Assembly (NCBI GenBank): GCA_963805855.1
Contig: CAWDVW010000007.1
Location: forward strand, 391,457-455,456
DNA from: Candidatus Dadabacteria bacterium
GTDB taxonomy: Bacteria; Desulfobacterota_D; UBA1144; Nemesobacterales; CSP1-2
DNA: 64,000 bases
Direction of reading: 5' to 3'
In this document: positions 4,437 through 55,082 of the stretch, piece by piece
How positions within the stretch are numbered: position 1 is the first letter of the stretch
Layout: each line of letters opens with the position of its first letter
Notes under the pieces: model-generated
Database searches by the model: none
The model's input: only the letters and a program-made list of their open reading frames with translations
Told to the model about the DNA's origin: nothing
Program-made: the position numbers and the translations under genes

Positions 4437-4838
4437 TCAGCCCTCAGCAGGTAGTACGGAATACTTTCTGAGTATCTCCCGGAGATCTATTGAAAATCTT
4501 GATCTGGGAATTACAAGATCACAACCCGCTCTATCAGCTTCCTTTTTTAATTCGATTTGAACGTGCGATAAAAATCCGATCACTGGAATCTGTTTAAGCT
4601 CACTGCTAGATTTAATGCTTTTTATAATTTCGAGAGGGCTGCCGGCTCTGGAATTGAGATCAAATATGATCAGAGAGGGTTTTTCTGATAATATTTTCTC
4701 TTTAAACCCGTCCGGGGTTTTTACAAATTCCAGGTCTATGTCAAGAGTCTTGGCGGCTTCTCTAATCTTCGACGAGAAGAAGAGATCATCCAATACAGCT
4801 AGAATCTTTTTTCTGTGATTTTTCCTTTCACTAATCAT
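4437..4838 (-). CDS. Single-domain response regulator (CheY-like receiver only)
   Basis: 133 aa. Acidic pocket LAVLDD and phospho-acceptor LIIFDLN are present. No output domain and no kinase gene lies adjacent. Confidence 0.7.
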   Translation of the reverse strand: MISERKNHRKKILAVLDDLFFSSKIREAAKTLDIDLEFVKTPDGFKEKILSEKPSLIIFDLNSRAGSPLEIIKSIKSSSELKQIPVIGFLSHVQIELKKEADRAGCDLVIPRSRFSIDLREILRKYSVLPAEG

Positions 4839-9783: not shown

Positions 9784-12700
9784 ATGCATTCAAAGCCTAA
9801 GTTTAGAAAGAAGGTAAAACATTTTCAAAGAGTCCTGGTGGCAAATCGAGGAGAGATTGCAATTCGAGTATTTCGCGCGTGCACCGAGCTCGGCATAAAT
9901 ACAGTTGCAATCTATTCTGAAGAGGATTCTTTTTCTCTGCACAGAAGCAAGGCCGACGAAGCCTACTTAATCGGGAAAGACAAGGGTCCGGTCGAGGCGT
10001 ATTTGGATATAGATGGGATTATAAGTCTGGCGATTGAAAAGAATGTTGACGCCATTCATCCCGGATACGGATTCTTATCTGAAAATCCAGATCTCGCTAG
10101 GGCATGTATTGATGCGGGGATATCCTTCATTGGTCCCCCTCCAGAGGTGACTGAGCTGATGGGCGATAAGGCGGCAGCGAGGAGATTGGCCACCAGGTCG
10201 GGGGTACCTATCGTTCCCGGAACAGAGGGATTTGTGGAAAATGATGAACAAGCTATCAAGTTTTCAAGAGGCGCCGGGTTCCCGGTGATTATAAAGGCTG
10301 CCCACGGCGGGGGAGGCAGGGGAATTAGAATCAACTATGATCAAAAGTCTCTGATAGAGAACCTTCCACAGGCTAGGTCAGAGGCGAAGGCGGCATTCGG
10401 AAGTGATGCCGTACTACTAGAAAAATACATTGAAAATCCAAAACATGTAGAAGTGCAGGTCCTGGGTGATCAATACGGTAACGTGATTCATTTATTTGAA
10501 CGCGACTGTTCCGTTCAAAGAAGACATCAGAAGGTGACGGAACTGGCGCCCGCATTAACGCTTGACCGTGATTTTAAGGAGAGGATTTATGATGCGGCTC
10601 TCCGATTATCTAATGCCGCGAATTATACAAGTGCGGGCACGGTTGAATTTTTAGTCGACCTAAAGGGAAATTTCTATTTTATCGAGATGAACACCCGCAT
10701 CCAGGTAGAACACACCGTCACAGAACTGATTACCGGTGTGGATCTTGTCCAAGCCCAGATACGAATTGCAGAAGGTCATAGATTGCACGACCCCCAAACA
10801 GGGATTCCCAGGGGTTCCGCGTTAAGATGTAACGGATATGCGCTACAGTGCCGCATTACTACAGAAGATCCGACAAATAACTTTACCCCTGATATAGGTC
10901 GATTAATTGCGTATCGGTCCCCCGGTGGATTCGGAATAAGGCTTGATGCCGCCAGTGCCTATGTAGGTGCCGCGATCACGCCGTATTACGATTCCATGCT
11001 GGTAAAAGTTACCTCTTGGGGTTTAACATTTGATCAGTGTGTCAAGAAGATGGATAGGGCGCTGCAAGAGTTTCGCATCCGAGGGGTTAAAACAAATATC
11101 CCTTTCCTGATTAAGCTGATCAGGCATCCTGTGTTCAAAAGAGGGGAATGCACAACGAGTTTTCTCCAGGATCACCCGGAAGTCTTTGACATAAAGGAAC
11201 CACGGGACAGGGCTACCAGGCTTTTGAACTTTATTGGAGATGTCACTATAAACCAATCCCTTAAGAAGCCCAAGACCTGGGAAGAACATCCACCCCTAAG
11301 ACCGATTTTACCGTCAACAGACCACAACAGGTCAGTGGTTCCTGAACACAGACAGGTTTTTGACCGGGAGGGTCCGGAGGGATTATCAAAGTGGATTTTG
11401 AAACAAAAACGTTTGCTTGTGACAGACACGACATTTCGCGATGCTCATCAATCTCTGCTCGCGACGCGACTGAGAACCTATGATATGCATAATATCGCAA
11501 AGGCAACTGGCCATTTGGGGAGAAATATTTATTCATTCGAGATGTGGGGTGGGGCGACATTCGACGTATGTCTGAGATTTCTCAAAGAATGCCCCTGGAA
11601 CCGAGTTTCAAAGCTCCGGGAATCTATGCCTCACGCCATCCTCCAAATGCTGCTCCGCGGCGCTAATGCTGTCGGATATGCCAACTACCCGGATAATATC
11701 GTAAGAGAATTCATAAGAGAGGCAGCAAGGTGTGGGATAGACCTATTCAGAATCTTTGATTGCTTCAATTGGATCCCGAATATGAAGGTTTCAATAGAAA
11801 CGGCCCTTGACACAGGCAAGATAGTTGAAGCAGCAATATGTTATTCAGGAGATATTACCGACCCAAAACGGGATAAATACACGCTTAAGTACTACGTAGA
11901 TCTCGCGAGGGAACTTTCGAAAATGCATGTCCACCTTATCGCGATCAAGGATATGGCCGGACTATGTAAACCCTTTGCGGCGGAAAAGCTGGTCCGCGCT
12001 ATAAAAGAAGAAACGGGGCTCCCCTTGCATTTTCACACACATGCGACCAGCGGAAACGGGGAGGCAACAGTTCTCAAAGCTGCCGAAGCAGGCGCGGACA
12101 TTGTTGATTCGGCCATCAGCTCATTATCTGGACTGACCTCTCAGCCTAGTTTAAATGCGGTTGTCGCTGCCCTGGAAGGAACTGAGCGGGACACGTTGAT
12201 CGATGTAAAGGACTTAAACAAACTCTCAACATACTGGGAGGCGGTCAGAGGCTATTATGCGCCATTTGAAGGGGATATGAAATCTTCCAATGCAGATGTG
12301 TATCTATACGAAATCCCAGGCGGTCAATACACAAACCTGCGTTCACAGGCCCAATTGCTTGGATTAGGAGATAGGTGGGAAGATATAAAACAGATGTACG
12401 CCGAGGCAAATAAACTCTTTGGCGATATCATTAAGGTGACTCCATCTTCAAAGGCGGTGGGGGACATGGCCCTATTTTTGGTTCAGAACGATCTCAAACC
12501 AGATGATGTTATAGAGAAAGCCGACCAATTGACCTTTCCCAAATCTGTTATCGATATGATGGAGGGACACCTCGGGCAGACCCTGGGAGGATTTCCTCCT
12601 GACATTCAAAAGGCTATTTTAAGAGATAAAACACCGATAAATGTAAGACCAGGGGAGTTAATCCCACCGGCAGATTTCAATGGCAACAGAAAGAGATTAG

Positions 12701-13263
12701 AGCTGGAGCTAAATCATCGCATAACAGATCAGGATTTGGTCTCAGCCTTTCTTTATCCGGGAGTCTTTGAAGAATTCGATAAGCATAGGACGCTCTACGG
12801 AGACATTTCTGTCGTTCCCACATCCGCGTTCTATTATGGGATGGAGCCAGGAGAAGAGACCACTTTAGAGATTGAGGAAGGCAAAACGATTCTCGTAAAG
12901 CTTTTTGCCATTGGGGAAAGCGAGCCTGATGGAAGGGTGCCACTACTGTTTGAGGTTAATGGTCAGCCTCGACCGGTGAGGGTGTTGGATAAATCAGCTA
13001 CAGGCGCATCTATAAAGGCTAGACCAAGAGCAGACATAAAAAACCCTCTGGAAGTTGGGGCACCGCTAGGCGGCAAGGTAGTGAATCTGCTTGTTAAAGA
13101 GGGGGATAAAATAAGCCACGATCAGCCCTTGTTTACGATAGAAGCGATGAAGATGAGAACTAATATCAAAGCCATAAATGAGGGCGTTGTTTCGAAGGTT
13201 CTAATATCCGAGGGGGACAGTGTTGACGCGGGGGAGCTAGTTCTACGGCTGTCTGATGAATGA
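9784..13263 (+). CDS. pyc: Pyruvate carboxylase, single-chain (biotin carboxylase, carboxyltransferase and biotinyl domain)
   Basis: 1159 aa. The N-terminal BC domain reads ILVANRGEIAIRV. The TIM-barrel CT domain contains HFHTHATSGNG. The C-terminal biotin attachment site is EAMKM. Confidence 0.95.
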   Translation: MHSKPKFRKKVKHFQRVLVANRGEIAIRVFRACTELGINTVAIYSEEDSFSLHRSKADEAYLIGKDKGPVEAYLDIDGIISLAIEKNVDAIHPGYGFLSENPDLARACIDAGISFIGPPPEVTELMGDKAAARRLATRSGVPIVPGTEGFVENDEQAIKFSRGAGFPVIIKAAHGGGGRGIRINYDQKSLIENLPQARSEAKAAFGSDAVLLEKYIENPKHVEVQVLGDQYGNVIHLFERDCSVQRRHQKVTELAPALTLDRDFKERIYDAALRLSNAANYTSAGTVEFLVDLKGNFYFIEMNTRIQVEHTVTELITGVDLVQAQIRIAEGHRLHDPQTGIPRGSALRCNGYALQCRITTEDPTNNFTPDIGRLIAYRSPGGFGIRLDAASAYVGAAITPYYDSMLVKVTSWGLTFDQCVKKMDRALQEFRIRGVKTNIPFLIKLIRHPVFKRGECTTSFLQDHPEVFDIKEPRDRATRLLNFIGDVTINQSLKKPKTWEEHPPLRPILPSTDHNRSVVPEHRQVFDREGPEGLSKWILKQKRLLVTDTTFRDAHQSLLATRLRTYDMHNIAKATGHLGRNIYSFEMWGGATFDVCLRFLKECPWNRVSKLRESMPHAILQMLLRGANAVGYANYPDNIVREFIREAARCGIDLFRIFDCFNWIPNMKVSIETALDTGKIVEAAICYSGDITDPKRDKYTLKYYVDLARELSKMHVHLIAIKDMAGLCKPFAAEKLVRAIKEETGLPLHFHTHATSGNGEATVLKAAEAGADIVDSAISSLSGLTSQPSLNAVVAALEGTERDTLIDVKDLNKLSTYWEAVRGYYAPFEGDMKSSNADVYLYEIPGGQYTNLRSQAQLLGLGDRWEDIKQMYAEANKLFGDIIKVTPSSKAVGDMALFLVQNDLKPDDVIEKADQLTFPKSVIDMMEGHLGQTLGGFPPDIQKAILRDKTPINVRPGELIPPADFNGNRKRLELELNHRITDQDLVSAFLYPGVFEEFDKHRTLYGDISVVPTSAFYYGMEPGEETTLEIEEGKTILVKLFAIGESEPDGRVPLLFEVNGQPRPVRVLDKSATGASIKARPRADIKNPLEVGAPLGGKVVNLLVKEGDKISHDQPLFTIEAMKMRTNIKAINEGVVSKVLISEGDSVDAGELVLRLSDE

Positions 13264-13276
13264 AGTGATACGTATG

Positions 13277-13334
13277 GAACACATATCCTTCGACTACGCT
13301 CAGGACAGGTATGCGTTCCCAGGTTTTGTTTTTC
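13277..13334 (+). terminator. Rho-independent terminator for pyc, built from a degenerate palindrome/insert repeat copy
   Basis: Stem GGAACACATATCC ... GGTATGCGTTCC around a loop containing TCCTTCGACTACGCTCAGGACAG. It is followed by CAGGTTTTGTTTTTC, 14 nt after the stop codon. Confidence 0.6.
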
Positions 13335-13641
13335 AATAGATCAGGTTAACCATCGAGTATTTGAATCAGTCTACAAAATTAGCAATTAACTATTTTTCTA
13401 TAGTATTCCTTACTACTCGTACCGATATTAGTCAGATTTTCTATATCGGCTTCCCATTTTAGTGGATTATATCTGATATATTCCCTGATTTTGTTAAAGC
13501 TTCTTTCGGTTCTGATTATATGATCGTAGAATGATTTTTGCCATTGAAATTTACTATGTTCGCATGAATACCTGATTTTACGGGTAACAGATGATTTGTA
13601 TTATTGTACTATAGTCGATAATAGCATCTTTGTCCTGTTGG

Positions 13642-13669
13642 GTAGGGAACGCATATATGCGTTCCCTAC
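13642..13669. repeat. Perfect 28-bp palindrome GTAGGGAACGCATATATGCGTTCCCTAC, copy identical to 551-578
   Basis: Exact match. It lies between the convergent pyc and ICMT-methyltransferase genes and is a candidate bidirectional terminator hairpin. Confidence 0.9.
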
Positions 13670-13675
13670 ATGTAA

Positions 13676-14209
13676 TTATACATCTGTATGTCTGACTTGG
13701 TTTCTCCGTATATTGTCAAGAGCATTTTCTTCGATTTTAATTCTTCTTCGAATCAAAATCAAATTGACGATACTGAATAGTATTGACGTTAAATAACAGG
13801 AGAATATCAATGGGATGACCGCTATCTCCAATATGACTGCTATGTAATTTGGATGTTTAAGGTATTTATAGGGGCCCGTGCTTACGCGCTCGGAGCCTGG
13901 AACGACGAGGACCTTGGTATTCCAATACACCCCTAAGCTCGATATAGCCCAGTACCTGAGTATCTGGGCAATCAAAAAAATAAGCAGGAATACGAGCCAA
14001 AATTTGTTTAACTCCCTTTGAAGCGAAAATTTCTCGAGCACGAGAGAGATAAGAAAGGCAACGTGCGTGACCACAATGTACTTGTAACCATCTCTGTCGA
14101 ATTCGAGAGCCCCTTTTGATTTGACTATTTGCTCATTACGCTTTGCAAGACGTAGCTCTAGAAGGCGCTGTGAAACGAGAAGGGCGAGGAATATCCAAAA
14201 AAAGATCAT
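13676..14209 (-). CDS. ICMT-family (isoprenylcysteine carboxyl methyltransferase-like) integral-membrane methyltransferase, BpsB-like
   Basis: 177 aa, multi-TM, with a C-terminal region typical of ICMT/PEMT-family AdoMet methyltransferases. The start overlaps the type III PKS stop (ATGA). Confidence 0.7.
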   Translation of the reverse strand: MIFFWIFLALLVSQRLLELRLAKRNEQIVKSKGALEFDRDGYKYIVVTHVAFLISLVLEKFSLQRELNKFWLVFLLIFLIAQILRYWAISSLGVYWNTKVLVVPGSERVSTGPYKYLKHPNYIAVILEIAVIPLIFSCYLTSILFSIVNLILIRRRIKIEENALDNIRRNQVRHTDV

Positions 14210-15291
14210 ACAACCTGGAATAAAATTATTTCAGAGCTGAAGCCGGGACCCAGCGCTGAGATAAGACCATAATCGCCGGCGCCGTATTCGCCGCTATCGA
14301 GGAAATCTTTTAAAACATACAGTACAGTAGGTGAGGACATATTGCCATGATCGCGGAGTACGTTTCTGGAATGACCGAGTGCCCCGTCGGCAAGACCAAG
14401 AGATTCTTCATAGGAATTTATGACCTTAATCCCTCCAGGGTGAAAAACATAATGCTTGACATCATTAATCGAGAGGTCATACATTTCAAGTAGCTCTTCA
14501 ATATTCTCATGTACATATTTTCTCACAATTGTGGGGATGTCCTTACTGAAGATTGCCTTGAACCCCGCATCCACTATTTCCCAACCCATTACATCCAAAG
14601 AATCATAGTAAGTCGTAGTCAGGGAATGGATTAGCTTTATGCCTCCTAGTCCGTAAAGGCGGTGTTCGCATCCTGCCACCAGAGTAGCGGCGGCGCCATC
14701 GGAGAATAGAGCCATGGCAACTATATTACTTTTAGAGTAATCTTCCCTCAATATCGAAAGGCTGCAAATTTCCAGTGCGATCAGAAGAACCGCACTCCTC
14801 GGAAAAGCTGTTGTGTACTCCATAGCCCGACTCAGACCTACAGCCCCTCCTACGCAACCCAATCCCCAGACAGGTGATCGTTTCAGGTGAGGATCGAGTC
14901 TTAAGTTATTTATTATTATGGCATCTATGGAAGGGGTTGAAATGCCCGTACTCGATATATATATGATATGATCAAAATCCGACAGGTGGGCATCTATCTT
15001 GCCGATACACTTTCCGATGGCGTCTATTGATAAAGTAGAGGCATTCTTGACGTACTCCTCGTTTTTTTCAACAAAACTGTGAGCCTGAAAAAACCATTCC
15101 GGGGGCTGAGTGAAATGCCTGGATTCTATCATTGAGTTATCAAAAACTCTTATCATTTTATCTATATGATCGCGCTTATCGCTGAAAAGTTGATAGGTGA
15201 AATTCTTAATATCACTCTGAGAAAAGTGATATGGGACGTCAGCAAGTCCTACAGAAATCAGTTTCGGGTTACCCTCTGTCTTTGATAGCAA
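14206..15291 (-). CDS. Type III polyketide synthase (chalcone/stilbene synthase family, BpsA/alkylpyrone synthase-like)
   Basis: Catalytic Cys in GLGCVGG, plus FHPGG and GNMSS(P) motifs characteristic of the CHS-like thiolase fold. 361 aa. Confidence 0.85.
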   Translation of the reverse strand: MLSKTEGNPKLISVGLADVPYHFSQSDIKNFTYQLFSDKRDHIDKMIRVFDNSMIESRHFTQPPEWFFQAHSFVEKNEEYVKNASTLSIDAIGKCIGKIDAHLSDFDHIIYISSTGISTPSIDAIIINNLRLDPHLKRSPVWGLGCVGGAVGLSRAMEYTTAFPRSAVLLIALEICSLSILREDYSKSNIVAMALFSDGAAATLVAGCEHRLYGLGGIKLIHSLTTTYYDSLDVMGWEIVDAGFKAIFSKDIPTIVRKYVHENIEELLEMYDLSINDVKHYVFHPGGIKVINSYEESLGLADGALGHSRNVLRDHGNMSSPTVLYVLKDFLDSGEYGAGDYGLISALGPGFSSEIILFQVV

Positions 15292-15545
15292 TTGGCCTCA
15301 ATCTCGAAGGATAATGTTATTGGTCTAAGTTTACAAATAAAAGTTAGCTGACATATTATACTTATTCAATCAAAGGCTTAGATACGTAATGCATGACTAT
15401 TGGAATATCATTTCATCCTGCTGAGTCCTGTCGTCGATCTTATCAATCCTTTTACCATAGAGAATTTAGATCTGATAACTTGGGTAGAGGCTCTTTATGG
15501 TAAACTGAACTGTAATTATAATATCTTGAAAGGAGGGAAATCAAC

Positions 15546-17015
15546 TTGGACTTTAAGCTAAGCAAACGTGATCCACTGGAAGTGAAATGCGACGTGCTGG
15601 TTTTCGGGAAGTTTGAAAATGAGAGGATTGGAGGGTTGATTAAAAAGGCAGATAAGGCCATGGAGAATGTGCTGGATCGTACATTCGAGCAAGAAAAATT
15701 TAAGGGCGAAATAGGAAAGAGTGTAATGATAAATGCCCTGGGCAAATTAAAGGCTGACCGAATCCTGATAGTCGGCCTCGGGAAAAAGTCTAAATTTAAT
15801 CTCGACGTGTTAAGGAAGCTGGGAATTCACACCGCCAAAAGAACTAATTCACTTTCGCAAAGAACAGCCTTTGCTCTTGAAATCTCGGCGAATAGGGGAA
15901 ATTTCGCAGCAGTTGCTGAGGGAATGATGCTTGGGTGCTATAACTTCAATAAGTACAAGACAAACGATAAAGGCTCTGAGGGGGACCGGACGGTGGAGTT
16001 TATCACCGATAAGGTTAGGGAGAAAATGTTCAGCGGTGAGGTTGAATACGCAAAAATCATCGCAGAAGCGACCAATTTCGCGAGAGACTTGGTGAATGAA
16101 CCTCCCTTGGCCCTGACGCCAAAAAGGCTCGCCGAGATTGCAGCAGAGATTGCAAAAGATGGGAAACTCGGCTGTAAGATTTTCGATACAAAGGAGATCG
16201 AAAAGAGAGGAATGGGGGGTCTGACCGCAGTTTCAAAAGGAAGCGATGAGCCGCCAAAGTTTATACATCTAACATTTGAATCAACAAGAACGCCAAGAAA
16301 AACAGTTGCAATTGTGGGCAAGGGAATTACATTCGATTCGGGTGGCCTATGTATAAAACCCAGCGACAGCATGCGAACGATGAAGATGGACATGAGTGGA
16401 GCGGCCTGCATCCTGGGTGTCATGAAGGCACTTCCAAAGCTAAACCCCCCGGTAAGAGTCCATGGGCTCGTCTCTGCGGCTGAAAACATGCCCGGCGGAA
16501 AGGCGTATAAACCGGACGACATAATCCGCGCACTCGACGGGAAGACAATAGAGGTTGTCAACACAGATGCAGAGGGCAGAATTGTTCTCGCTGACGCCCT
16601 CTGCTATGCCGTTCAACTAAAGATCAAAGAAATAGTAGACCTCGCAACCCTTACCGGGGCATGCATAGTGGGACTGGGGAACTATACTGCGGGTGTAATG
16701 GGTAATAATCAACCATTGATAAATCGGATTCTCGATGCTGCAAACCTGGCAGGCGAAAAGGTATGGCAGCTTCCGCTCGACGAAGAACTCAGAAAGGAGA
16801 TTGATAGTGATGTTGCGGATGTTAAAAATGTTGGCAGTCGATGGGGAGGCGCGATTACAGCAGCAATGTTCTTAGAGAAGTTTGTCGGTGATACCCCGTG
16901 GGCGCACATCGACATTGCCGGACCAGCGTACTTAGAGAAGGGCGGCGATTGGTATCCCAAGGGCGGGACCGGTTTCGGGGTAAGAACAGTTATACGTTAC
17001 CTGCTGGGACGATAA
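15546..17015 (+). CDS. pepA: Leucyl aminopeptidase (M17)
   Basis: NTDAEGRIVLADAL signature and the VGKGITFDSGG motif. TTG start with an AAAGGAGG SD 8 nt upstream. Confidence 0.92.
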   Translation: MDFKLSKRDPLEVKCDVLVFGKFENERIGGLIKKADKAMENVLDRTFEQEKFKGEIGKSVMINALGKLKADRILIVGLGKKSKFNLDVLRKLGIHTAKRTNSLSQRTAFALEISANRGNFAAVAEGMMLGCYNFNKYKTNDKGSEGDRTVEFITDKVREKMFSGEVEYAKIIAEATNFARDLVNEPPLALTPKRLAEIAAEIAKDGKLGCKIFDTKEIEKRGMGGLTAVSKGSDEPPKFIHLTFESTRTPRKTVAIVGKGITFDSGGLCIKPSDSMRTMKMDMSGAACILGVMKALPKLNPPVRVHGLVSAAENMPGGKAYKPDDIIRALDGKTIEVVNTDAEGRIVLADALCYAVQLKIKEIVDLATLTGACIVGLGNYTAGVMGNNQPLINRILDAANLAGEKVWQLPLDEELRKEIDSDVADVKNVGSRWGGAITAAMFLEKFVGDTPWAHIDIAGPAYLEKGGDWYPKGGTGFGVRTVIRYLLGR

Positions 17016-20460: not shown

Positions 20461-21120
20461 CTATCTAATAGTCAGTGTACCGGCAGTCACAACATTATTT
20501 GATTCGAGGATTCCCCTGACTTTAACTTTTGTACCAATATCTTCACAAAAACAGGGTTCATTCCTGCAACCCGTTATATTGGTTGTGGGGGTAATATTTA
20601 CTATTACGAAAACCTTCGGATTACTGTTTCGCGTTTGTACCTCAAGCGTTCCGGTATTAACATCACAATTATTCTCTATTACAGTACCGTTAAAGTTAGT
20701 GACAATCTGATTAATAAAAATCACATTCCCGTTTTCAATGTTTATCGTACCGAGTTCAAGTGTCGCACCTCTGTAAACATTGAGGAAAGTTGTGGCAAAA
20801 GACGGAGGGTCTAGCTGTTCTCTAAAGTCCAGTCTGGTGGATGACCCTGAAAAAAGGCCCTCAATTATAAAGAATCCCGAGCTAGGCAGAGTGTCGGATA
20901 AGTCGGGGTTGTTATTCACAACTACAAAAGTCCCTTCGACCGGGATACTATCGGGCACTATGCTGGTTACGTTTCCCTGAACGGTCTCAAAGCTGTCCCC
21001 TCCATCCCCTCCACCTCCACCTCCACCAAACTCAATATCACATCCCAATAAGGCAATAAGTGTTATGAATATAATATTGAGCATAACAATTTTAGGTAAA
21101 ATAGAATTTTGAAGACTCAT
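20461..21120 (-). CDS. Lipoprotein of unknown function with a Gly-rich linker (GGGGGGGDGGD) after the lipobox Cys
   Basis: Signal peptide with lipobox LLGC. Beta-strand-rich, Asn/Thr-rich body with conserved Cys pairs (CRNEPCFC). The true start is probably the internal M13 (MLNIIF...). Confidence 0.6.
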   Translation of the reverse strand: MSLQNSILPKIVMLNIIFITLIALLGCDIEFGGGGGGGDGGDSFETVQGNVTSIVPDSIPVEGTFVVVNNNPDLSDTLPSSGFFIIEGLFSGSSTRLDFREQLDPPSFATTFLNVYRGATLELGTINIENGNVIFINQIVTNFNGTVIENNCDVNTGTLEVQTRNSNPKVFVIVNITPTTNITGCRNEPCFCEDIGTKVKVRGILESNNVVTAGTLTIR

Positions 21121-32757: not shown

Positions 32758-33294
32758 TTGACGAAGGTTCATTTAGGAGGTCACACCATGTTAAAAGTTT
32801 ATAGACTGGTCCACTTGACACTTTTTCTTTGTCTAACTGTCACGTTTATTAGCTGTGGAAAGAAGGCGGCCAAGCCAATTAATCCGGAATCATTACCCCC
32901 TGCATTCTCACAAACTCTTATTCTAAAAAACGAAACTGCGGATGAAGTTCATATATTCCCGGCGCCAGGCTCAATCGGTGAACCTTTGGTATTAAAACCC
33001 GGCGAATCGATCAGCATGAATTTTATGGTTAACAGAAAAGCTTCTCTAGACGAATCCGGCAATCCAACAGAAGGTGGCTGGACCGTAGAGATAGATAAGC
33101 AGCATAAGTTTCTTGGCATGAGAGACACCGATGGTCTTCTGCGGATCAAAACCTCGAAGGGGGAGTTATGGGAGTATAAAATAGATTTGGGCAAGTGCTG
33201 GTTCGAAAATAAACCGCCGACCAAAGATCATGAGCTGACTATTCATGAAAAAGGACCGGATCAGAGTGCTCCCGCTCTTGTACTGTGTGAGTAA
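32758..33294 (+). CDS. Lipoprotein of unknown function
   Basis: Signal peptide with lipobox FISCG. 178 aa with no recognisable catalytic motif. It sits immediately upstream of the M64-like peptidase. Confidence 0.6.
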   Translation: MTKVHLGGHTMLKVYRLVHLTLFLCLTVTFISCGKKAAKPINPESLPPAFSQTLILKNETADEVHIFPAPGSIGEPLVLKPGESISMNFMVNRKASLDESGNPTEGGWTVEIDKQHKFLGMRDTDGLLRIKTSKGELWEYKIDLGKCWFENKPPTKDHELTIHEKGPDQSAPALVLCE

Positions 33295-35987: not shown

Positions 35988-36665
35988 TCAAAGGGAAAAA
36001 GAATAATCACTTGATACGTGAGGATTCATCTCGAAAACGCGTGAAAAGGATCCGATTATACTATCTTTAACCTCGGACATCTCAATATCCTTTTTATTAC
36101 CTGACAGCTCTCTTATCGATGTCATTTTGATGCCCGGAATTCCGCAAGGCACTATCATCGCGAAATAAGATAAATCCGTATTCACGTTTAGAGCAAATCC
36201 ATGATAGGTTGTCCATTTCTTCACACCAATTCCGATTGATGCAATCTTTTCATCCCCCACCCAAACCCCGGTATAATCCCTTTTTCTCTCACCGGAAATG
36301 TTAAAATCGCCGAGCGCATTGATGATTACCTCTTCTATATTTCTCAAAAAGAGATGAATGTCACATTTGTGATTGTTCAGATCCAGAATCGGATAGCCGA
36401 CTAATTGTCCGGGTCCATGATATGTGATGTCGCCTCCTCTGCCCACAATTTCGAAATAGATACCACTATTCTTCAGTTCCTCGTGGTTCTTCAGGAGATT
36501 TTCCGGTTTGCCTCTTCTCCCCACTGTGAAGGTCGGAGGATGCTCTAGCAGTAAAAGAGTGTCCCCGACCTCGCCGCGCCTTATTTTGTTGAGAAGTGAT
36601 ATTTGGAGTTCTAGAGCCTTCTTATAATTCACTGTGCCTAGGTTGTAAACCGTTAGAACACTCAT
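35988..36665 (-). CDS. lipB: Octanoyltransferase (lipoyl(octanoyl) transferase)
   Basis: LEHPPTFTVGRRG motif, the catalytic Cys region PCGIPG and a Lys in GVKKWTTYHG. Confidence 0.88.
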   Translation of the reverse strand: MSVLTVYNLGTVNYKKALELQISLLNKIRRGEVGDTLLLLEHPPTFTVGRRGKPENLLKNHEELKNSGIYFEIVGRGGDITYHGPGQLVGYPILDLNNHKCDIHLFLRNIEEVIINALGDFNISGERKRDYTGVWVGDEKIASIGIGVKKWTTYHGFALNVNTDLSYFAMIVPCGIPGIKMTSIRELSGNKKDIEMSEVKDSIIGSFSRVFEMNPHVSSDYSFSL

Positions 36666-36745: not shown

Positions 36746-38182
36746 TTACATATTCCGGGCCCGATCTAATGCTGATAAAGCGGCCTCCATGACTGCCTCT
36801 GAAAGAGTGGGATGAGCGTGTGGTGTCAATGCAATCTCCAGTGGAGTTGCCTCCAGGGTCTGTGCAACTCCGATTTCCGCAATGAGTTCTGTTGCGCCAT
36901 GACCAATAATATGGGTACCTATAATTTCACCCGTAATTGAATCTGATATTATCTTGACAAAACCATCAGTTTCACCCGTTGCAACTGCTTTCCCGGATGC
37001 TCTAAACGGGAACTTGCCAACTTTGATCTTGAGTCCTTTCTCCCTGGCTGCATCCTCCGTAATGCCGACGGATGCTATTTCTGGCTGGCAGTAAACACAG
37101 CTTGGTATCCTGTCATAACGGACCCTGTTTTCCTTCTGTCCAGATATCAACTCAACTGTGGTGATTCCCTCTTCTGAAGCCTTGTGAGCTAGGAGAGGTG
37201 GGCCAATCACATCGCCAATTGCGTACACATTGCTGCAGGTTGTTCTATAAGAGCCATCGGTCTTTATGAATCCCTGTTCATTAAGCTCTATATTCAAATC
37301 CTTGAGCCCTAGATCATCGGAGTCTTTATAATAGCTCAACGATGTCGGGGCGGTATTAGCTACAGCCTTCCGACCAACCGCGACCAGTAGCTTTGAAGCT
37401 TCGATTACCTTTAACTCTTTACTTGATATTTGTTCAACCGTTACATTAAGCGAATCCTTTAACCGTTTGTAACTATTATATTTACAGTTTATTAGGACCG
37501 TTATACCGGATTTCTTGAATACCCTTTCAAGCTCCGAAGCTACTTCAGAATCCGCCCCGGGAAGTAGATGACTTTCCATCTCAATAATTGTAACCTTACT
37601 GCCAAATGAATTATATACATAGGCGAATTCCGCACCTATATAACCTCCCCCTATGATGACAATCGATTTGGGAAAATCCTTTGACATGATTGCTTCATCA
37701 CTAGTGATTACCAGCTTCCCATCTATTTCGAGTCCGGGAAGCGTCTTAGGCACAGAACCTGTAGCTATCAGCACGTTCTCAGCCTCGATCTCATTCTGGT
37801 TCTTGTTGGTGATAATTCCTATTTTATTTCTCGTTATTAATTTACCCGTGCCCTGAAGGTGGGCGATTCCGTTTTTCTTGAAGAGAAATTCCACACCCTT
37901 ACTTAAAGTGGATGAGGCTTTTCGGCTTCTATCGATAACCTTTGAATAATCAAATGCAAGCCCCTCGACATTGATTCCATAGGAGTTAGACCTCTTAAAA
38001 TACTCATATATCTCGGCGCACTTGAGGATTGCTTTTGATGGAATGCATCCCCAGTTAAGACAGACTCCCCCAGGCTTATCCCTTTCAATAACGGCAACCT
38101 TCATTCCCAATTGCGCCGCGCGAATCGCCGCAAGATAACCGCCGGGACCCGATCCTATCACCGCTAAATTATATTTTTCCAT
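36746..38182 (-). CDS. lpdA: Dihydrolipoyl dehydrogenase (E3), copy 1
   Basis: FAD motif VIGSGPGGY, redox-active disulfide GGVCLNWGCIPSK, NAD motif IIGGGYIGAEFA and a C-terminal HAHPTLSE interface motif. Confidence 0.92.
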   Translation of the reverse strand: MEKYNLAVIGSGPGGYLAAIRAAQLGMKVAVIERDKPGGVCLNWGCIPSKAILKCAEIYEYFKRSNSYGINVEGLAFDYSKVIDRSRKASSTLSKGVEFLFKKNGIAHLQGTGKLITRNKIGIITNKNQNEIEAENVLIATGSVPKTLPGLEIDGKLVITSDEAIMSKDFPKSIVIIGGGYIGAEFAYVYNSFGSKVTIIEMESHLLPGADSEVASELERVFKKSGITVLINCKYNSYKRLKDSLNVTVEQISSKELKVIEASKLLVAVGRKAVANTAPTSLSYYKDSDDLGLKDLNIELNEQGFIKTDGSYRTTCSNVYAIGDVIGPPLLAHKASEEGITTVELISGQKENRVRYDRIPSCVYCQPEIASVGITEDAAREKGLKIKVGKFPFRASGKAVATGETDGFVKIISDSITGEIIGTHIIGHGATELIAEIGVAQTLEATPLEIALTPHAHPTLSEAVMEAALSALDRARNM

Positions 38183-38348
38183 GGCGTAGTATTATAGCTA
38201 CGGATTATTAATGGTCAATTATCCGCTTTTTTATTTACATTCCGTACTAGGTATAATAGGATAAAATTGAATAAATATGACGATCACTTAAGATAATAAT
38301 GACCGGTACGGTTTAAGATCTCTACATTAGCTTATAAAAGGCAGTAAA

Positions 38349-41033
38349 ATGAGCCGACTTGTAGAAAAAGGTAAAGAAATTTCTCAGCACGAAGCCATCG
38401 AAACCCAAGAGTGGATTGATTCGCTTGAGCAGGTTATAAAGACCAGTACACCCGAGAGGGTCAAACGGCTGATAAAGCAACTACACATCCATGCAAAGAA
38501 AGCGGGAATCGATGCCCCGTACGCCGCGAACACACCCTATATAAACACAATACCCGTAGACAAACAGCCCCCATTTCCAGGTAGCCGTGAAATAGAAAGG
38601 CGAATTAAGAGTCTGATTCGCTGGAATGCTATGGCTATGGTTGTCAGGGCTAACAGAATAGAAGAGGGGATTGGTGGACATATCTCTACTTACGCATCTA
38701 CGGCAACACTTTTTGAGATAGGCTTCAATCATTTCTTTCGAGCTAAGGGGGAAGACCGCGAAGGCGACATTATCTATTTTCAGGGCCATGCATCTCCCGG
38801 GGTTTATGCCAGGGCATTTCTGGAGGGACGCCTTTCAATTGAACAATTGGAAAATTTTCGAAGGGAGTTAAAACCAGGTGGAGGATTGTCATCCTATCCC
38901 CATCCATGGTTAATGCCCAATTTCTGGCAATTCCCTACAGTCTCTATGGGATTGAGTCCGATTATGGCAATCTATCAGGCACGGTTCAACCGTTATCTTG
39001 AGGATCGCGGGCTCAAGAAGCCGTCAGATGCAAAGGTGTGGTGTTTGATGGGAGACGGAGAAACAGATGAACCAGAATCTCTCGGTGCTATTACCTTAGC
39101 AGCAAGGGAGAAATTGGATAATCTGATTTTTGTGATAAATTGCAATTTGCAAAGATTGGATGGCCCTGTTCGGGGGAATGGCAAAATAATACAGGAACTT
39201 GAGACGATCTTCAGAGGAGCGGGCTGGAACGTAATTAAGGTGATTTGGGGAAGCGACTGGGATCCTCTCCTAGCAAAAGATCACGACGGCGTTCTTGTGA
39301 ATCGCATGGAGGAAGCTGTGGATGGCGATTATCAAAAGTATATAGTTGAATCGGGTAAATACATCCGCGATCACTTTTTTGGTACTGACCCTCGGCTATT
39401 GGATCTGGTTAAAAACCTATCCGATGAACAACTCCAAAAACTTAGGCGCGGTGGGCATGATCCCGAAAAGGTATACGCGGCATTCAAGGCTGCGATGGAT
39501 AATACGGGATCACCAACGGTGATCTTAGCTAAGACAATTAAGGGTTATGGTCTCGGCGAGAGCGGTGAGGGTAAAAACATAACTCATCAACAAAAGAAAT
39601 TAAATGAGGAAGAGCTCAGGGAATTTCGAACCCGTTTTGGTATCCCTATCTCTGATGAAGAAGTTTCCAAAGCGCCATTCTATAAGCCCCCTGACGAAAG
39701 TCCCGAAATAAATTATCTTCATGAGAGGCGAAAGGAACTTGGCGGATACATACCTCATAGGTCTGCTAACTGCGAGCCTCTCAAGACTCCTCCTGAAAAG
39801 GTTTTCGAAGAATTTCATAAGGGATCCGGAGATAGGGGTGTTGCCACGACAATGGCGTTTGTAAGACTGCTTTCTAAGTTACTCAAAGACGAGCAGATCG
39901 GGAAATTAATAGTTCCTATTATCCCGGACGAGGCCCGTACATTTGGAATGGAGTCCCTATTCCGCCAAGTTGGTATTTACTCTCATGTTGGACAGCTATA
40001 TGAGCCGGTAGATAAGGAGACCCTTCTCTACTATAGAGAGGCTTCAGATGGGCAGATTCTCGAAGAGGGCATTACGGAAGCTGGCTCAATGTCCTCATTT
40101 ATCGCTGCAGGGACAGCATATTCGACTCATGGCATAAACATGATACCTTTCTTCGTTTTTTACTCCATGTTTGGTTTTCAAAGAATAGGTGATCTTATAT
40201 GGGCTGCGGGTGACATGAGATGCCGAGGATTTTTGATAGGCGGAACCTCCGGTCGCACAACGCTGGCTGGTGAAGGGTTGCAACACCAGGATGGGCACAG
40301 CCACGTCTTGGCATATTCTGTGCCAAACTTAAAGACCTATGATCCGGCATTTGCGTACGAGATAGCCGTAATCATAAGGGACGGCATACGTCGGATGTAT
40401 GAGGAGCAACAGGATGTATTCTATTATCTGACCGTAATGAACGAACCCTATGTTCAACCCCCGATGCCCAAAGGGGTTACGGATGGCATTTTAAAAGGGA
40501 TGTACAAGTTTAGGGCATCTGCCAACAGAGAGACTAAACATCATGCGCAGATACTCGGAAGCGGGTCGATGCTGAACGAGGCTCTTAAAGCCCAGAAGAT
40601 TCTGGAAGAAAAATACGAAGTAGCCGCCGATGTTTGGAGTGTGACTAGCTATAAGGAACTCTATAGGGATGGATTGGATGTCGAGAGGTGGAACATGTTA
40701 CATCCCTCCGAGATAAATAAAATACCGTACATTACTCAATGCCTTGGTGACGCGCCAGGCGTTTTCGTTGCGGCTACAGATTACGTGAAAGCGCTACCGG
40801 ATTCTATCTCGCAATGGCTTCCACGACCCCTTGTCTCGCTGGGAACGGACGGTTATGGAAGAAGCGGTAGCCGATCTGCGCTTCGTGACTTTTTTGAAGT
40901 CGATTTTAGGTTTATAACCTTGGCGACGCTTGCTGCTCTTGCGAGAGAGAAAAAGATTCATACCGATGTAGTTCAAAATGCAATAGAAGACCTTGAAATC
41001 GAGCCAAACAAACCAAATCCAATGATTTCTTGA
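38349..41033 (+). CDS. aceE: Pyruvate dehydrogenase E1 component, homodimeric type
   Basis: 894 aa. ThDP-binding GDGE..E..NL region. Typical AceE N-terminus (..ETQEWIDSLE..). Confidence 0.93.
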   Translation: MSRLVEKGKEISQHEAIETQEWIDSLEQVIKTSTPERVKRLIKQLHIHAKKAGIDAPYAANTPYINTIPVDKQPPFPGSREIERRIKSLIRWNAMAMVVRANRIEEGIGGHISTYASTATLFEIGFNHFFRAKGEDREGDIIYFQGHASPGVYARAFLEGRLSIEQLENFRRELKPGGGLSSYPHPWLMPNFWQFPTVSMGLSPIMAIYQARFNRYLEDRGLKKPSDAKVWCLMGDGETDEPESLGAITLAAREKLDNLIFVINCNLQRLDGPVRGNGKIIQELETIFRGAGWNVIKVIWGSDWDPLLAKDHDGVLVNRMEEAVDGDYQKYIVESGKYIRDHFFGTDPRLLDLVKNLSDEQLQKLRRGGHDPEKVYAAFKAAMDNTGSPTVILAKTIKGYGLGESGEGKNITHQQKKLNEEELREFRTRFGIPISDEEVSKAPFYKPPDESPEINYLHERRKELGGYIPHRSANCEPLKTPPEKVFEEFHKGSGDRGVATTMAFVRLLSKLLKDEQIGKLIVPIIPDEARTFGMESLFRQVGIYSHVGQLYEPVDKETLLYYREASDGQILEEGITEAGSMSSFIAAGTAYSTHGINMIPFFVFYSMFGFQRIGDLIWAAGDMRCRGFLIGGTSGRTTLAGEGLQHQDGHSHVLAYSVPNLKTYDPAFAYEIAVIIRDGIRRMYEEQQDVFYYLTVMNEPYVQPPMPKGVTDGILKGMYKFRASANRETKHHAQILGSGSMLNEALKAQKILEEKYEVAADVWSVTSYKELYRDGLDVERWNMLHPSEINKIPYITQCLGDAPGVFVAATDYVKALPDSISQWLPRPLVSLGTDGYGRSGSRSALRDFFEVDFRFITLATLAALAREKKIHTDVVQNAIEDLEIEPNKPNPMIS

Positions 41034-41049
41034 TATGGACGGATGATCT

Positions 41050-42450
41050 ATGGTAACCGAATTCAAATTGCCTGAGCTGGGCGAAGATATTGCGACAGGA
41101 GACGTCATAAACGTTTATGTCTCTGCTGGCGACCGCGTATCGAAAGACCAGCCCATTATGGAAATTGAAACAGATAAGGCGGCGATTGAGGTTCCGGCAC
41201 CCGTAAGTGGTGTCATAACTGGAGTGCACGTAAAGGAGGGGGAAACTATAAATGTCGGACAATTATTAATTACTATAGAAGAATCCGGAGACGAAAAAAT
41301 AGAGCCTGAAGTTAAAGACGAGATTCACGAAAAGGAAGAACAATCAGCCGAAGAAAAGATCGAGGCTGAAGGGAAGAAGACTGAAGAAAAAATTGCGGAA
41401 GTGAAATCTAAAGTTGAGCCAAAAGGAAGGGACCGGGCAGAGATTGCAGAAGAAGAATACGAAGAGGAATCGGCCTCGAGGGAAGAAGGTAAAGTCGTGG
41501 AATTTGCTCGATCGTCGCAAGCAGATGTTGCGAAAGAATCTCCGAGAAAACTCGTCCCCGCCTCACCCTCGGTTCGGAGACTGGCTCGTGAGTTGGGAGT
41601 GGATATTAATCAGGTTAAGGGTTCGGGCCCGGGGGGACGGATTTCGGAAGAGGATGTAAAACATTATGCAAGCAAAAAGGTCTCAAAAGCCGGCCCAGAA
41701 GAAATTCAAGTTGGGAAAGCTGATACATCTTTACCTGATTTTACAAAGTGGGGAGAAATAGAGCGGAAGCAGATGTCCAAGGTAAGACGACTAACGGCAG
41801 AGCGGATGACCGCTGCCTGGCGGGCTCCTCATGTGACTCAGCATGACAAGGCCGATATTACAGAGTTAGAGAAAACAAGGAAACTCTTTGGCAGGGAAAC
41901 AGAAAAGGCCGGTGGAAAACTGACCGTGACCGCTATTCTAATCAAGGTAGTCGGCTCAGCACTTAAGATTTTCCCGCAATTCAACGCTAGCGTAGATATG
42001 ACAAACAGCGAGGTTATTTACAAGAAATACTATAACATTGCTGTCGCCGTGGACACTGACAGAGGCCTTCTAGCACCCGTCATAAAGGATGTGGATAAGA
42101 AGAATTTGATTGAGCTTGCTGTAGAGCTCACCCAATTGTCTGAAAGAGCGAGAGACAAAAAAGTCTCGGTCGAGGAACTGCAGGGAGGAACTTTTACGAT
42201 TAGCAATCTTGGCGGACTCGGGGGTACCTATTTTACACCAGTTATCTATTCTCCGGATGTTGCCCTGCTTGGGGTATCGCGCTCCAAAATCGAACCGGTC
42301 TTTATTGACGACAAATTTGAACCTCGCCTCATGTTACCGCTTTCACTATCTTATGATCACCGAATTATAGATGGGGCGGACGCGGTTCGTTTCTTACGGT
42401 GGACCGTTGAAGCCTTGGAACAGCCTTTCAAGGTCATGCTGGAGGGATGA
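41050..42450 (+). CDS. aceF: Dihydrolipoamide acetyltransferase E2 (single lipoyl domain, E3-binding domain and catalytic domain)
   Basis: Lipoyl-Lys context IETDKAAIEV, PSBD PSVRRLARELGVD and the catalytic DHRIIDGA motif. Confidence 0.93.
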   Translation: MVTEFKLPELGEDIATGDVINVYVSAGDRVSKDQPIMEIETDKAAIEVPAPVSGVITGVHVKEGETINVGQLLITIEESGDEKIEPEVKDEIHEKEEQSAEEKIEAEGKKTEEKIAEVKSKVEPKGRDRAEIAEEEYEEESASREEGKVVEFARSSQADVAKESPRKLVPASPSVRRLARELGVDINQVKGSGPGGRISEEDVKHYASKKVSKAGPEEIQVGKADTSLPDFTKWGEIERKQMSKVRRLTAERMTAAWRAPHVTQHDKADITELEKTRKLFGRETEKAGGKLTVTAILIKVVGSALKIFPQFNASVDMTNSEVIYKKYYNIAVAVDTDRGLLAPVIKDVDKKNLIELAVELTQLSERARDKKVSVEELQGGTFTISNLGGLGGTYFTPVIYSPDVALLGVSRSKIEPVFIDDKFEPRLMLPLSLSYDHRIIDGADAVRFLRWTVEALEQPFKVMLEG

Positions 42451-55080: not shown

Positions 55081-55082
55081 AT

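Follow-up and report, generated by a model that had tools for sequence, protein, structure and literature searches.

The locus consists of two overlapping genes on the minus strand. It lies in a 64-kb stretch of DNA, hereafter the window, from an uncultured, presumably non-sporulating diderm of the Dadabacteria/Thermodesulfobacteriota lineage. Analysis by ORF calling, Pfam and BLASTP identifies the upstream gene (14206-15291) as that of a type III (CHS-like) polyketide synthase (PKS) of the BpsA type, 361 amino acids in length, and the downstream gene (13676-14209) as that of an ICMT-family polytopic membrane methyltransferase (MT) of the BpsB type, 177 amino acids in length. The PKS frame opens with a TTG codon at 15291-15289 and closes with a TGA at 14208-14206; the MT frame extends from an ATG at 14209-14207 to a TAA at 13678-13676. 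As an earlier note on this DNA had claimed, the ORFs and the sequence place the PKS stop codon on the MT start codon, in a 4-nt ATGA overlap at 14206-14209 of the minus strand. A weak AGG is found 5 nt upstream of the MT ATG, and translation of the two genes is presumably coupled across the junction. An ENA contig of 98% identity (L026), for which an independent gene call exists, likewise encodes products of 361 and 177 amino acids with a 4-nt overlap. The exact PKS protein of the window was not found in the assembly collection, where a protein 98% identical to it was.

The TTG is the sole canonical in-frame start that retains the conserved N-terminus of the PKS, and a Shine-Dalgarno-like GAGG element is located 4 nt upstream of it (15296-15299, minus strand). 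When the upstream regions of the window and its closest relatives were compared, this element was seen in the window, L001 and L026, and was missing in L002. Most PKS homologues are 7 amino acids shorter than the window protein, and the exact start is therefore uncertain. Further upstream, 64 nt before the PKS start, the sequence and the upstream alignment reveal a TATAAT box (15355-15360, minus strand), which reads TATAAT, TATAGT or TATAAC among the window, L001, L002 and L026; the box may serve as the −10 element of the operon promoter; no good −35 element accompanies it. At the other end, 7 nt past the MT stop codon, the transcript would form a perfect 12-bp hairpin, GUAGGGAACGCA-UAUA-UGCGUUCCCUAC (13642-13669, minus strand). 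Its folding free energy is −24.6 kcal/mol (z −5.9), and none of 200 shuffled sequences was as stable. This hairpin, which has no U-tract, is a candidate operon-end stem-loop; the terminator scan did not report it because the T-run is missing. Neither the promoter scan nor the terminator scan produced a convincing element for the operon. With permissive thresholds, an Rfam scan of positions 13200-15600 yielded no match; neither the 254-nt upstream region nor the AT-rich downstream region of about 410 nt therefore contains a known riboswitch or sRNA.

The family of the first enzyme is clear. Both Pfam domains, PF00195 (Chal_sti_synt_N, 67.1 bits) and PF02797 (Chal_sti_synt_C, 66.4 bits), exceed the cut-off of 27, and 103 type III PKS sequences in the PDB match the window protein at E < 1e-5. 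The best solved relatives in that search are Mycobacterium tuberculosis (Mtb) Pks11 (E 1.4e-57), CylI and THNS, the first two of which are lipid-primed. Pks11 (PDB 4JAO), an alkylpyrone synthase, is the closest solved structure and aligns over residues 19-358 with 32% identity. By contrast, the FabH models of NCBIfam score far below their cut-offs (TIGR00747, 48.4 bits versus 292; NF006829, 51 versus 249), in agreement with the earlier claim of a CHS-like rather than a FabH-like enzyme; the protein also falls short of the DpgA equivalog NF042429 (176.6 bits versus 425). Judged by sequence, the assignment of this protein to the type III PKSs is far beyond chance, and so is that of the MT to its family.

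The motifs quoted for this protein in the earlier note were all located, namely GLGCVGG at residues 143-149, FHPGG at 283-287 and GNMSSP at 316-321. The catalytic triad, Cys146, His284 and Asn317, aligns with C138/H277/N310 of Pks11 and with C144/H285/N318 of BpsA. Residue mapping places Phe196 as the gatekeeper, Lys289 after the HPGG motif, and Trp237 at the position of Trp281 in ArsB and Leu266 in Pks18. Across 33 aligned PKS homologues, C146, F196, W237, H284, K289 and N317 are all invariant. In addition to the triad, Pks11 shares this tryptophan (W230), which lines its lipid-binding cavity. The putative acyl-tunnel residues are Thr115, Cys176 and Ile180, of which the first two correspond to T113 and C174 in BpsA. 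The third is characteristic of the window lineage, the equivalent residue being Phe in 29 of the 33 homologues, including BpsA (Phe178); this substitution could change the preference for the starter or for chain length. It has been suggested that Trp at the position of ArsB residue 281 favors resorcinol formation, yet DquA and Pks11 have this Trp and make pyrones (PMC9827899). The cyclization mode of the window PKS is thus not predictable from sequence.

The second protein matches the Pfam ICMT family (PF04140) over residues 75-164 with 95.8 bits, relative to a cut-off of 24, and PEMT as a secondary family with 34.8 bits. Hydropathy analysis indicates four to five hydrophobic segments, and the AF2 model comprises five long helices (pLDDT 79.5). 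In Foldseek searches with this model, the only confident matches were the ICMT structures 5vg9/5v7p (probability 1.00, TM 0.50-0.52), with a weak E of 0.03; the archaeal Ma-ICMT (4A2N) was absent from the top matches. Sequence matches to solved ICMTs are also weak (E 0.0007-0.07), so that the main grounds for placing the protein in the ICMT family are Pfam, the motifs and the match to BpsB. The C-terminal AdoMet-binding motifs that the family assignment of the earlier note requires, G-x-Y, R/K-H-P-x-Y and E-E, are present on alignment with solved ICMTs, as G112-P-Y114, K118-H-P-N-Y122 and E160-E161. Specifically, GPYKYLKHPNY and IEEN align with GVYAWFRHPSY and IEES of Tribolium ICMT, and the same motifs with GIYKNIRHPMY and EEE of Ma-ICMT; the cofactor motifs line up with their counterparts in 5V7P, 4A2N and AtTam46. 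Lys118 replaces the canonical Arg of RHPxY. This position is Arg in 11 of the 23 cassettes compared and Lys or Arg in 17, with Ser, Asn and Pro also found. Ten residues are invariant among the MTs compared (H119, P120, N121, Y122, E160, R85, Y86, W87, W96 and N97), HPNY and E160 being so in all 23 cassettes. The protein does not reach the threshold of NF040696, the NCBIfam equivalog for the Ste14/ICMT protein-S-isoprenylcysteine O-methyltransferase (28.4 bits versus 160). The enzyme is a member of the ICMT family outside its protein-prenylcysteine subfamily, as would suit a small-molecule or lipid O-methyltransferase.

The two genes are strictly associated and have diverged together. In all 22 related loci that extend past the PKS gene, from Dadabacteria/Thermodesulfobacteriota, Ignavibacteria and Rubrobacter, the MT gene directly follows it; the stop and start codons overlap in 15 of them, by 4 nt in 12 and by 1 nt in the other 3. 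Moreover, the pairwise identities of the PKS and of the MT across 23 loci are correlated, with r = 0.94. The adjacency thus spans at least three phyla, in addition to Bacillus, Rhizobium and Streptomyces.

Among characterized homologues, Bacillus subtilis BpsA and BpsB (bcsA-ypbQ) score best against the window proteins. In BLASTP, the PKS is 42% identical to BpsA over its full length (303 bits, E 1e-105; the reference, P0361, is the protein named 'type III polyketide synthase BpsA [Bacillus subtilis]' at NCBI), compared with 241 bits for the Rhizobium protein, 231 for that of the Streptomyces Srs-type system and 201 for Pks11. The MT is 47% identical to a Bacillus BpsB orthologue, taken as the MT encoded directly after bpsA in Bacillus locus L024 (160-162 bits, E 2e-55), versus 127 bits for its Rhizobium counterpart and 110 for that of Streptomyces. 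In a neighbor-joining tree, which is based on distances only and left out Streptomyces griseus SrsA, ArsB/ArsC, DquA and PkqA, the window PKS falls within a clade with BpsA from which, in 173 of 200 bootstrap replicates, the Streptomyces and Rhizobium proteins and Pks11 are excluded. By BLASTP, both window proteins resemble BpsA/BpsB more than they do the Streptomyces srsABC-type system, the Rhizobium pair or Pks11. BpsA is identical to the window PKS at the triad, the Phe gate, the Trp, the Lys and the Thr/Cys tunnel residues, and BpsB shares with the window MT the KHPNY variant of RHPxY, including its Lys. The partner in Bacillus is likewise an ICMT-family membrane MT of about 170 amino acids, and the two loci have the same gene order, the same strand and an overlapping junction, as two-gene systems without a hydroxylase. 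They differ in the length of the overlap, which is 16 nt in Bacillus L024 and 4 nt in the window; in their flanks, which are pbuX and a dynamin-like gene in Bacillus and pyc and pepA in the window; and in the host, the Bacillus pair being that of a spore-forming Firmicute. The earlier note had described the arrangement as the same as that of bpsA-bpsB and srsA-srsB. That description stands for gene order and strand and fails for the ATGA junction: because the genes overlap by 16 nt in Bacillus and are separated by 12 nt in the Streptomyces example, 'same arrangement' can refer only to order and strand.

A conserved two-gene locus of anaerobic diderm bacteria, DquA/DquB, combines a type III PKS with an ICMT-like MT (PMC9827899); as described there, its architecture equals that of the window. 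In the Streptomyces SrsA/SrsB/SrsC and the mycobacterial and streptomycete PkqA/PkqB/PkqC systems, the first two genes are homologous, an ICMT-family MT coming after the PKS (PMC6669644, PMC9927152); unlike the window, these systems have a third gene directly after the MT, for an FAD-dependent monooxygenase or oxidoreductase. The plasmid operon of Streptomyces NBC_00184 (L027) encodes, along with an FAD monooxygenase, a PKS and an MT that are each 35% identical to those of the window (231 and 110 bits, respectively); its PKS lies outside the BpsA-type clade of the tree. HidABC, planctomycetal operons and CepA/CepB of 'Entotheonella' also join an alkylresorcinol or alkylpyrone type III PKS to an adjacent methyltransferase (PMC10896814, PMC7064976). 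In contrast to the window, the cyanobacterial HidABC and planctomycetal operons have the reversed order MT-oxidoreductase-PKS and include the oxidoreductase, and CepB, a glycine-rich SAM methyltransferase, is soluble and does not belong to the ICMT family of membrane proteins.

BpsA is reported to produce triketide pyrones and minor resorcinols from long-chain acyl-CoA, and BpsB, when co-expressed with BpsA, to yield the methyl ethers (PMC4901931, PMC5686519, PMC9827899). The most likely function of the window pair is the synthesis of long-chain alkylpyrones and/or alkylresorcinols followed by their O-methylation in the membrane. The hints to this product class in the sequence are the T115/C176 tunnel residues, shared with BpsA, and W237. 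We consider it probable, with good confidence, that the two genes make up a complete BpsA/BpsB-type operon for alkylpyrone and/or alkylresorcinol methyl ethers, even though identity to BpsA/BpsB reaches just 42-47%. According to the mechanism that we propose, the PKS, a soluble homodimer, would be primed at Cys146 with a medium- or long-chain fatty acyl group from its CoA or ACP thioester and would add two or three malonyl-CoA units by means of its Cys-His-Asn triad. Release by lactonization would give tri- or tetraketide 4-hydroxy-6-alkyl-2-pyrones, and aldol cyclization 5-alkylresorcinols, either or both of which may form. The integral-membrane MT, translated from the overlapping ATGA junction, would then use S-adenosylmethionine to O-methylate the lipid, by then partitioned into the membrane, at its free ring hydroxyl, and the resulting methyl ethers would remain in the envelope. 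In this scheme, we infer the starter chain length, the pyrone or resorcinol outcome, the O-methylation of the PKS product and the membrane-modifying role.

An alternative is that the pair forms the core of a polyketide-quinone pathway of the PkQ/Srs type. In those pathways, an alkylresorcinol is converted to a methoxy-alkylquinone (PMC6669644, PMC9927152). Here, the alkylresorcinol made by the PKS and methylated by the MT would be turned into an alkyl-methoxy-benzoquinone, an alternative respiratory electron carrier, by a hydroxylase or oxidoreductase whose gene lies in another part of the genome. A PKS-ICMT core is indeed common to srsABC, pkqABC (PMC9927152, PMC6669644) and the Streptomyces locus L027; Trp237 occupies a position tied to resorcinol formation; and the conserved core-genome neighborhood might suit a primary-metabolism lipid. 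Some relatives also carry redox-type neighbors: in Rubrobacter, a nitroreductase-family gene overlaps the PKS start, and in Ignavibacteria a VOC/glyoxalase gene follows the MT. Nevertheless, no SrsC-like or FAD_binding_3-type monooxygenase was found among the approximately 50 ORFs of the 64-kb window, as the earlier note had stated in reporting no hydroxylase; a tblastn search of the window with an SrsC-like query gave no matches other than to the Rossmann motif in two dihydrolipoamide dehydrogenases. The neighbors of the cassette in the window, pyc and pepA, are housekeeping genes. Of the accessory genes that adjoin the PKS-MT pair at other loci, homologues of UbiA, nitroreductase, VOC and the MFS exporter were searched for in the window and not found. 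Many Dadabacteria loci have an ArsR-type regulator gene ahead of the PKS, and tblastn at E ≤ 10 detected no remnant of it in the window. No third gene is conserved beside the pair in the Dadabacteria loci, which also speaks against a quinone pathway, as does the closer relationship of both proteins to a two-gene pyrone system, BpsA/BpsB, than to the three-gene system of Streptomyces. Thus, we regard both the quinone end product and its completion by an enzyme encoded elsewhere as improbable.

A second alternative concerns the MT alone, which might act on another membrane lipid or on a protein carboxylate and share no more than co-expression with the PKS, or might be catalytically silent, so that the end products would be unmethylated alkylpyrones or alkylresorcinols. 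The DquA/DquB locus offers a precedent: DquA produces long-chain alkylpyrones, and no methylated pyrones were obtained with DquB, the ICMT-like partner, in E. coli (PMC9827899). Methylation of the PKS product by the window MT is therefore not guaranteed. The variation at position 118 of the RHPxY motif among cassettes (K, R, S, N or P) and the low confidence of the AF2 model in the loop beside it (residues 111-117) point in the same direction. Weighed against this are the adjacency of the genes in 22 of 22 loci, the frequent overlap of stop and start codons and the co-divergence of the two proteins, while the ten invariant residues, HPNY and E160 among them, argue for a conserved and probably active enzyme. 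In addition, methylation of BpsA products by BpsB has been reported (PMC4901931), and a score of 28 bits against the 160 of the protein-S-isoprenylcysteine O-methyltransferase equivalog disfavors a protein substrate of that kind. Taken together, these observations make a silent MT, or one with another substrate, very unlikely. A fortuitous pairing of the MT with a FabH-like KAS III of fatty-acid initiation has a negligible probability and is refuted as an identity for the PKS: weak secondary Pfam and NCBIfam matches to ACP_syn_III and FabH models exist, and some homologues are recorded as '3-oxoacyl-ACP synthase III C-terminal domain-containing protein', but FabH models reach only 23-51 bits against cut-offs of 249-437, whereas the CHS domains pass theirs, type III PKSs match in the PDB, and the FHPGG and GNMSS motifs, like the full-length alignment with BpsA, mark a type III PKS.

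With the assignment to a BpsA/BpsB-type operon preferred, the gene pair is an ordinary and well-known two-gene operon, notable only for its Dadabacteria-like host lineage; the locus is a phylogenetically distant addition to a well-characterized system and raises no new mechanistic question. If the prediction is true, methylated lipids of the alkylpyrone or alkylresorcinol class are made by uncultured Dadabacteria as well as by related lineages of Ignavibacteria and Rubrobacter; they could alter membrane properties and serve as lipid biomarkers in soils and sediments. A restriction to sporulating lineages has been proposed for the DquA/DquB locus, and the counterparts in Dadabacteria, Ignavibacteria and Rubrobacter do not agree with it; that the pair is strictly conserved where sporulation is not known weakens the case for a role of the cassette in sporulation. 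Rather unlikely, in our estimation, is the further idea that the bpsAB-type pair of the non-sporulating diderm Dadabacteria, with pepA-sppA-ilvE on one side, belongs to the syntenic core of the genome and is inherited vertically, and is not an accessory secondary-metabolite cluster. Were this so, the product might be a methylated phenolic lipid made constitutively for the membrane, or a redox-active lipid that an enzyme from another locus completes; such a locus would contradict the sporulation tie proposed for Firmicutes and Negativicutes and would suggest a general, ancient function in the envelope. As to prior reports, PMC12795557 states, second-hand, that some Dadabacteria MAGs commonly carry type III PKS clusters; such wording is absent from the main text of PMC8115339, the source that it cites.

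On its minus strand, the window carries a 361-aa ORF with a TTG start for a type III polyketide synthase (PKS; 14206-15291) and a 177-aa ORF with an ATG start for an ICMT-family membrane methyltransferase (MT; 13676-14209). As the earlier note had claimed, the stop of the first overlaps the start of the second; at the junction, ...GTTGTATGATCTTT..., the ATG of the MT (14209-14207) and the TGA of the PKS (14208-14206) share the sequence ATGA. An independent gene call on an ENA contig of 98% identity yields the same two products with the same 4-nt overlap. The TTG is the sole canonical in-frame start that retains the conserved N-terminus of the PKS, with GAGG four bases 5' of it; because homologues are mostly of 354 aa, the first seven residues are uncertain. 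The MT start is preceded at 5 nt by a weak AGG, which together with the ATGA overlap suggests that the two genes are translationally coupled. A conserved TATAAT 64 nt 5' of the PKS and a perfect 12-bp hairpin without a U-tract, 7 nt past the MT stop (13642-13669; dG -24.6 kcal/mol, z -5.9), plausibly mark the limits of the transcript. This hairpin ends the spacer of about 410 nt between the convergent pyruvate carboxylase and MT genes (13264-13675), which is AT-rich (GC ~0.35), non-coding and free of Rfam matches.

Judged from its sequence, the first gene product is a CHS-like type III PKS. The Pfam domains Chal_sti_synt_N and Chal_sti_synt_C score 67 and 66 bits (cut-off 27), and 103 type III PKS sequences among solved structures match at E < 1e-5, led by M. 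tuberculosis Pks11 (1.4e-57), CylI (2.7e-43) and S. coelicolor THNS (7.4e-40). FabH-type Pfam domains reach 38 and 19 bits, and the NCBIfam FabH models just 23-51 bits against cut-offs of 249-437; the Pfam and NCBIfam scores and the structure matches thus refute a FabH-like identity, which the earlier note had singled out as the outcome to check for. The NCBIfam DpgA model also stays below its cut-off (177 bits vs 425). The motifs GLGCVGG, FHPGG and GNMSSP, read from the sequence beforehand, are located at residues 143-149, 283-287 and 316-321, and the catalytic triad falls at Cys146, His284 and Asn317 when the protein is aligned with Pks11 and BpsA. These three residues, the gatekeeper Phe196, Trp237 within an MGW motif and Lys289 after HPGG are invariant among 33 aligned homologues. 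Trp237 lies where ArsB has Trp281 and Pks18 has Leu266, and its offset of +91 from the catalytic Cys is that found in Pks18. A Trp at this position has been proposed to favor resorcinols (PMC7064976; PMC9927152), yet DquA, the PKS of a two-gene locus from anaerobic diderm bacteria, has the Trp and yields only pyrones (PMC9827899); the ring type is therefore not callable from sequence. The lipid-tunnel-equivalent positions, Thr115 and Cys176, carry the same residues in BpsA. Position 180 (codon ~14752-14754, minus strand), a predicted acyl-tunnel position, is Ile in the window and its two closest relatives, L001 and L002, while its equivalent is Phe in 29 of the 33 homologues, including BpsA (F178), and Tyr in Pks11; a lineage-specific shift of substrate or chain-length preference is possible.

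The downstream protein is a member of the ICMT family. It matches Pfam ICMT PF04140 at 95.8 bits (cut-off 24), with a secondary PEMT match of 34.8 bits, and fails the NCBIfam equivalog of true protein-S-isoprenylcysteine O-methyltransferase (28 bits vs 160). Alignment of its C-terminal half with Tribolium ICMT (5V7P), Ma-ICMT (4A2N) and AtTam46 recovers their cofactor-binding motifs, so that the AdoMet-binding motifs, whose absence would have told against the assignment, are present; G112-P-Y114...K118-H-P-N-Y122 is aligned with G-V-Y...R-H-P-S-Y, and I-E160-E161-N with I-E-E-S. H119, P120, N121, Y122 and E160 are invariant in 23 cassettes, and position 118 is Arg in 11 of them and Lys in 6. 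Four to five membrane-spanning segments are predicted from hydropathy; an AlphaFold2 model (pLDDT 79.5) has five long helices and, by Foldseek against the PDB, is matched with confidence only by ICMT 5vg9 and 5v7p (probability 1.00, TM 0.50-0.52).

Bacillus references were found via an approximate query sequence, and only the database's own named entries were taken; the BpsA reference, P0361, is named 'type III polyketide synthase BpsA [Bacillus subtilis]'. In B. spizizenii (L024), between pbuX and a dynamin-like gene, the BpsA orthologue is followed by a 168-aa ICMT-family gene with a 16-nt overlap. The window PKS is 42% identical to BpsA over residues 11-358 (303 bits, E 1e-105), compared with 35% for a Rhizobium pair (L028; 241 bits), 35% for a Streptomyces Srs-type locus (L027; 231 bits) and 32% for Pks11 (201 bits). 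Likewise, the MT is 47% identical to the Bacillus BpsB orthologue (160 bits, E 2e-55), 42% to the Rhizobium MT (127 bits) and 35% to the Streptomyces MT (110 bits). L027 and L028 were taken from annotated plasmid records; the former, with UbiA, PKS, ICMT and an FAD-dependent monooxygenase, agrees with the srsABC layout, and the latter has a PKS-ICMT pair with a 4-nt overlap, followed by an MFS exporter. In a neighbor-joining tree built without S. griseus SrsA, ArsB/ArsC, DquA and PkqA, the window and the Dadabacteria, Ignavibacteria and Rubrobacter sequences group with the Bacillales BpsA clade, leaving Streptomyces, Rhizobium and Pks11 outside in 173 of 200 bootstraps. The reading of the cassette as a bpsA/bpsB-like pair is supported.

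When one genome per GTDB species was scanned, 23 related loci emerged; their labels are Thermodesulfobacteriota/Dadabacteria, 'Spirochaetia' MAGs, Ignavibacteria and Rubrobacter. The nearest, at 92% identity, is a Thermodesulfobacteriota MAG, and the window was therefore assigned to the Thermodesulfobacteriota/Dadabacteria lineage. A same-strand MT homologue follows the PKS in all 22 loci that extend beyond it; 12 loci share the ATGA junction, 3 have a 1-nt overlap, and in two Dadabacteria loci and the actinobacterial loci the genes are separated by 34-85 nt. Pairwise identities of PKS and MT across the 23 loci correlate with r = 0.94, which indicates that the two genes are inherited as a unit. 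Two MAGs labelled 'uncultured Spirochaetia bacterium' (L012, CAZUDM010000013; L013, CAZPHQ010000004) have the full Dadabacteria order, i.e., sppA, pepA, ArsR, PKS, MT, DoxX and M20 peptidase, and their PKS branches within the Dadabacteria group; these labels look wrong.

The pair is bounded by a convergent pyruvate carboxylase gene (9784-13263) and a divergent leucyl aminopeptidase gene (15546-17015). The wider surroundings comprise hemB, purK and purE to one side and sppA, ilvE, a PhaR-like regulator and a glycosyltransferase to the other, and synteny across the Dadabacteria loci is seen on the pepA-sppA-ilvE side. Accessory genes vary with lineage. Many Dadabacteria have an ArsR-family HTH gene (92 aa; Pfam HTH_5, 58.7 bits) about 230 nt 5' of the PKS on the same strand (5490-5768 in L003, equivalent position in L004-L013), and many have a second copy farther downstream. 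The window, L001 and L002 have just a 254-nt intergenic region there (15292-15545 in the window, which holds no ArsR remnant), so that regulation probably differs in these three. In Rubrobacter, a nitroreductase-family gene and the PKS start share 4 nt (L019, 5150-5998; also L020-L022), and in Ignavibacteria the MT is followed, 5 nt on, by a VOC/glyoxalase-superfamily gene (L014, 7600-7956; also L015 and L017); either could modify the phenolic lipid in its own lineage.

BpsA converts long-chain acyl-CoA to triketide pyrones, and BpsB converts these to methyl ethers (PMC4901931; PMC5686519). By homology, the window PKS would be primed by a long-chain acyl thioester, add two or three malonyl-CoA units and release alkylpyrones and/or alkylresorcinols, after which the membrane MT would O-methylate a ring hydroxyl. 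That the MT acts on something other than the PKS product, as the inactivity of DquB in E. coli might suggest, is unlikely given the strict PKS-MT linkage and the invariant motifs. A quinone pathway of the Srs/Pkq type would require a hydroxylase in trans, and is disfavored both by the absence of one from the window and by the closer kinship of both proteins to the two-gene Bacillus system. The absence of a hydroxylase, already claimed for the cassette, extends to all 64 kb: Pfam annotation of ~50 ORFs across the whole window reveals no FAD_binding_3-type monooxygenase, and an SrsC-like query in tblastn matches two dihydrolipoamide dehydrogenases and nothing else, in both cases only at the Rossmann motif.

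Pairs of a type III PKS and an ICMT-like MT are already well documented in Bacillaceae, Sporomusaceae, actinomycetes and others. Dadabacteria MAGs have been said to carry type III PKS clusters (PMC12795557); this statement is not found in the main text of the source cited there. One point is mildly interesting: in lineages without known sporulation, the cassette is conserved and syntenic as a core locus, which fits awkwardly with a role linked to sporulation, as proposed for bpsAB and dquAB.

Elsewhere in the window, the pyruvate dehydrogenase E1 (38349-41033) and E2 (41050-42450) genes sit between two dihydrolipoamide dehydrogenase paralogues, of which the upstream one (36746-38182) is on the opposite strand and the other (42604-44040) lies downstream; a LplA/LipB-type lipoate-protein ligase gene (35988-36665) adjoins this cluster (36746-44040). 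A LutABC-like lactate-utilization set (52871-55805) encodes CCG-domain, LUD/4Fe-4S and LUD-domain proteins, and its last two ORFs (53635-55080 and 55002-55805) overlap by ~80 nt; either this overlap is genuine, or the mechanical ORF list has the start of the third gene wrong. A minus-strand PIN-domain ORF (59273-59662) is overlapped by 4 nt by an upstream 124-aa ORF without a Pfam match (59659-60033), and the two (59273-60033) resemble a toxin-antitoxin pair of the VapBC type, although the putative antitoxin would be unusually long. Pfam matches at E <= 1e-5 are also lacking for several ORFs of 120-220 aa, namely 4437-4838 and 20461-21120 (both minus), 32758-33294 and 58656-59027. One of these, the 219-aa ORF at 20461-21120 (family F22), is conserved beside the phaR-like gene not only in the closest relatives but also in L005 and L007.
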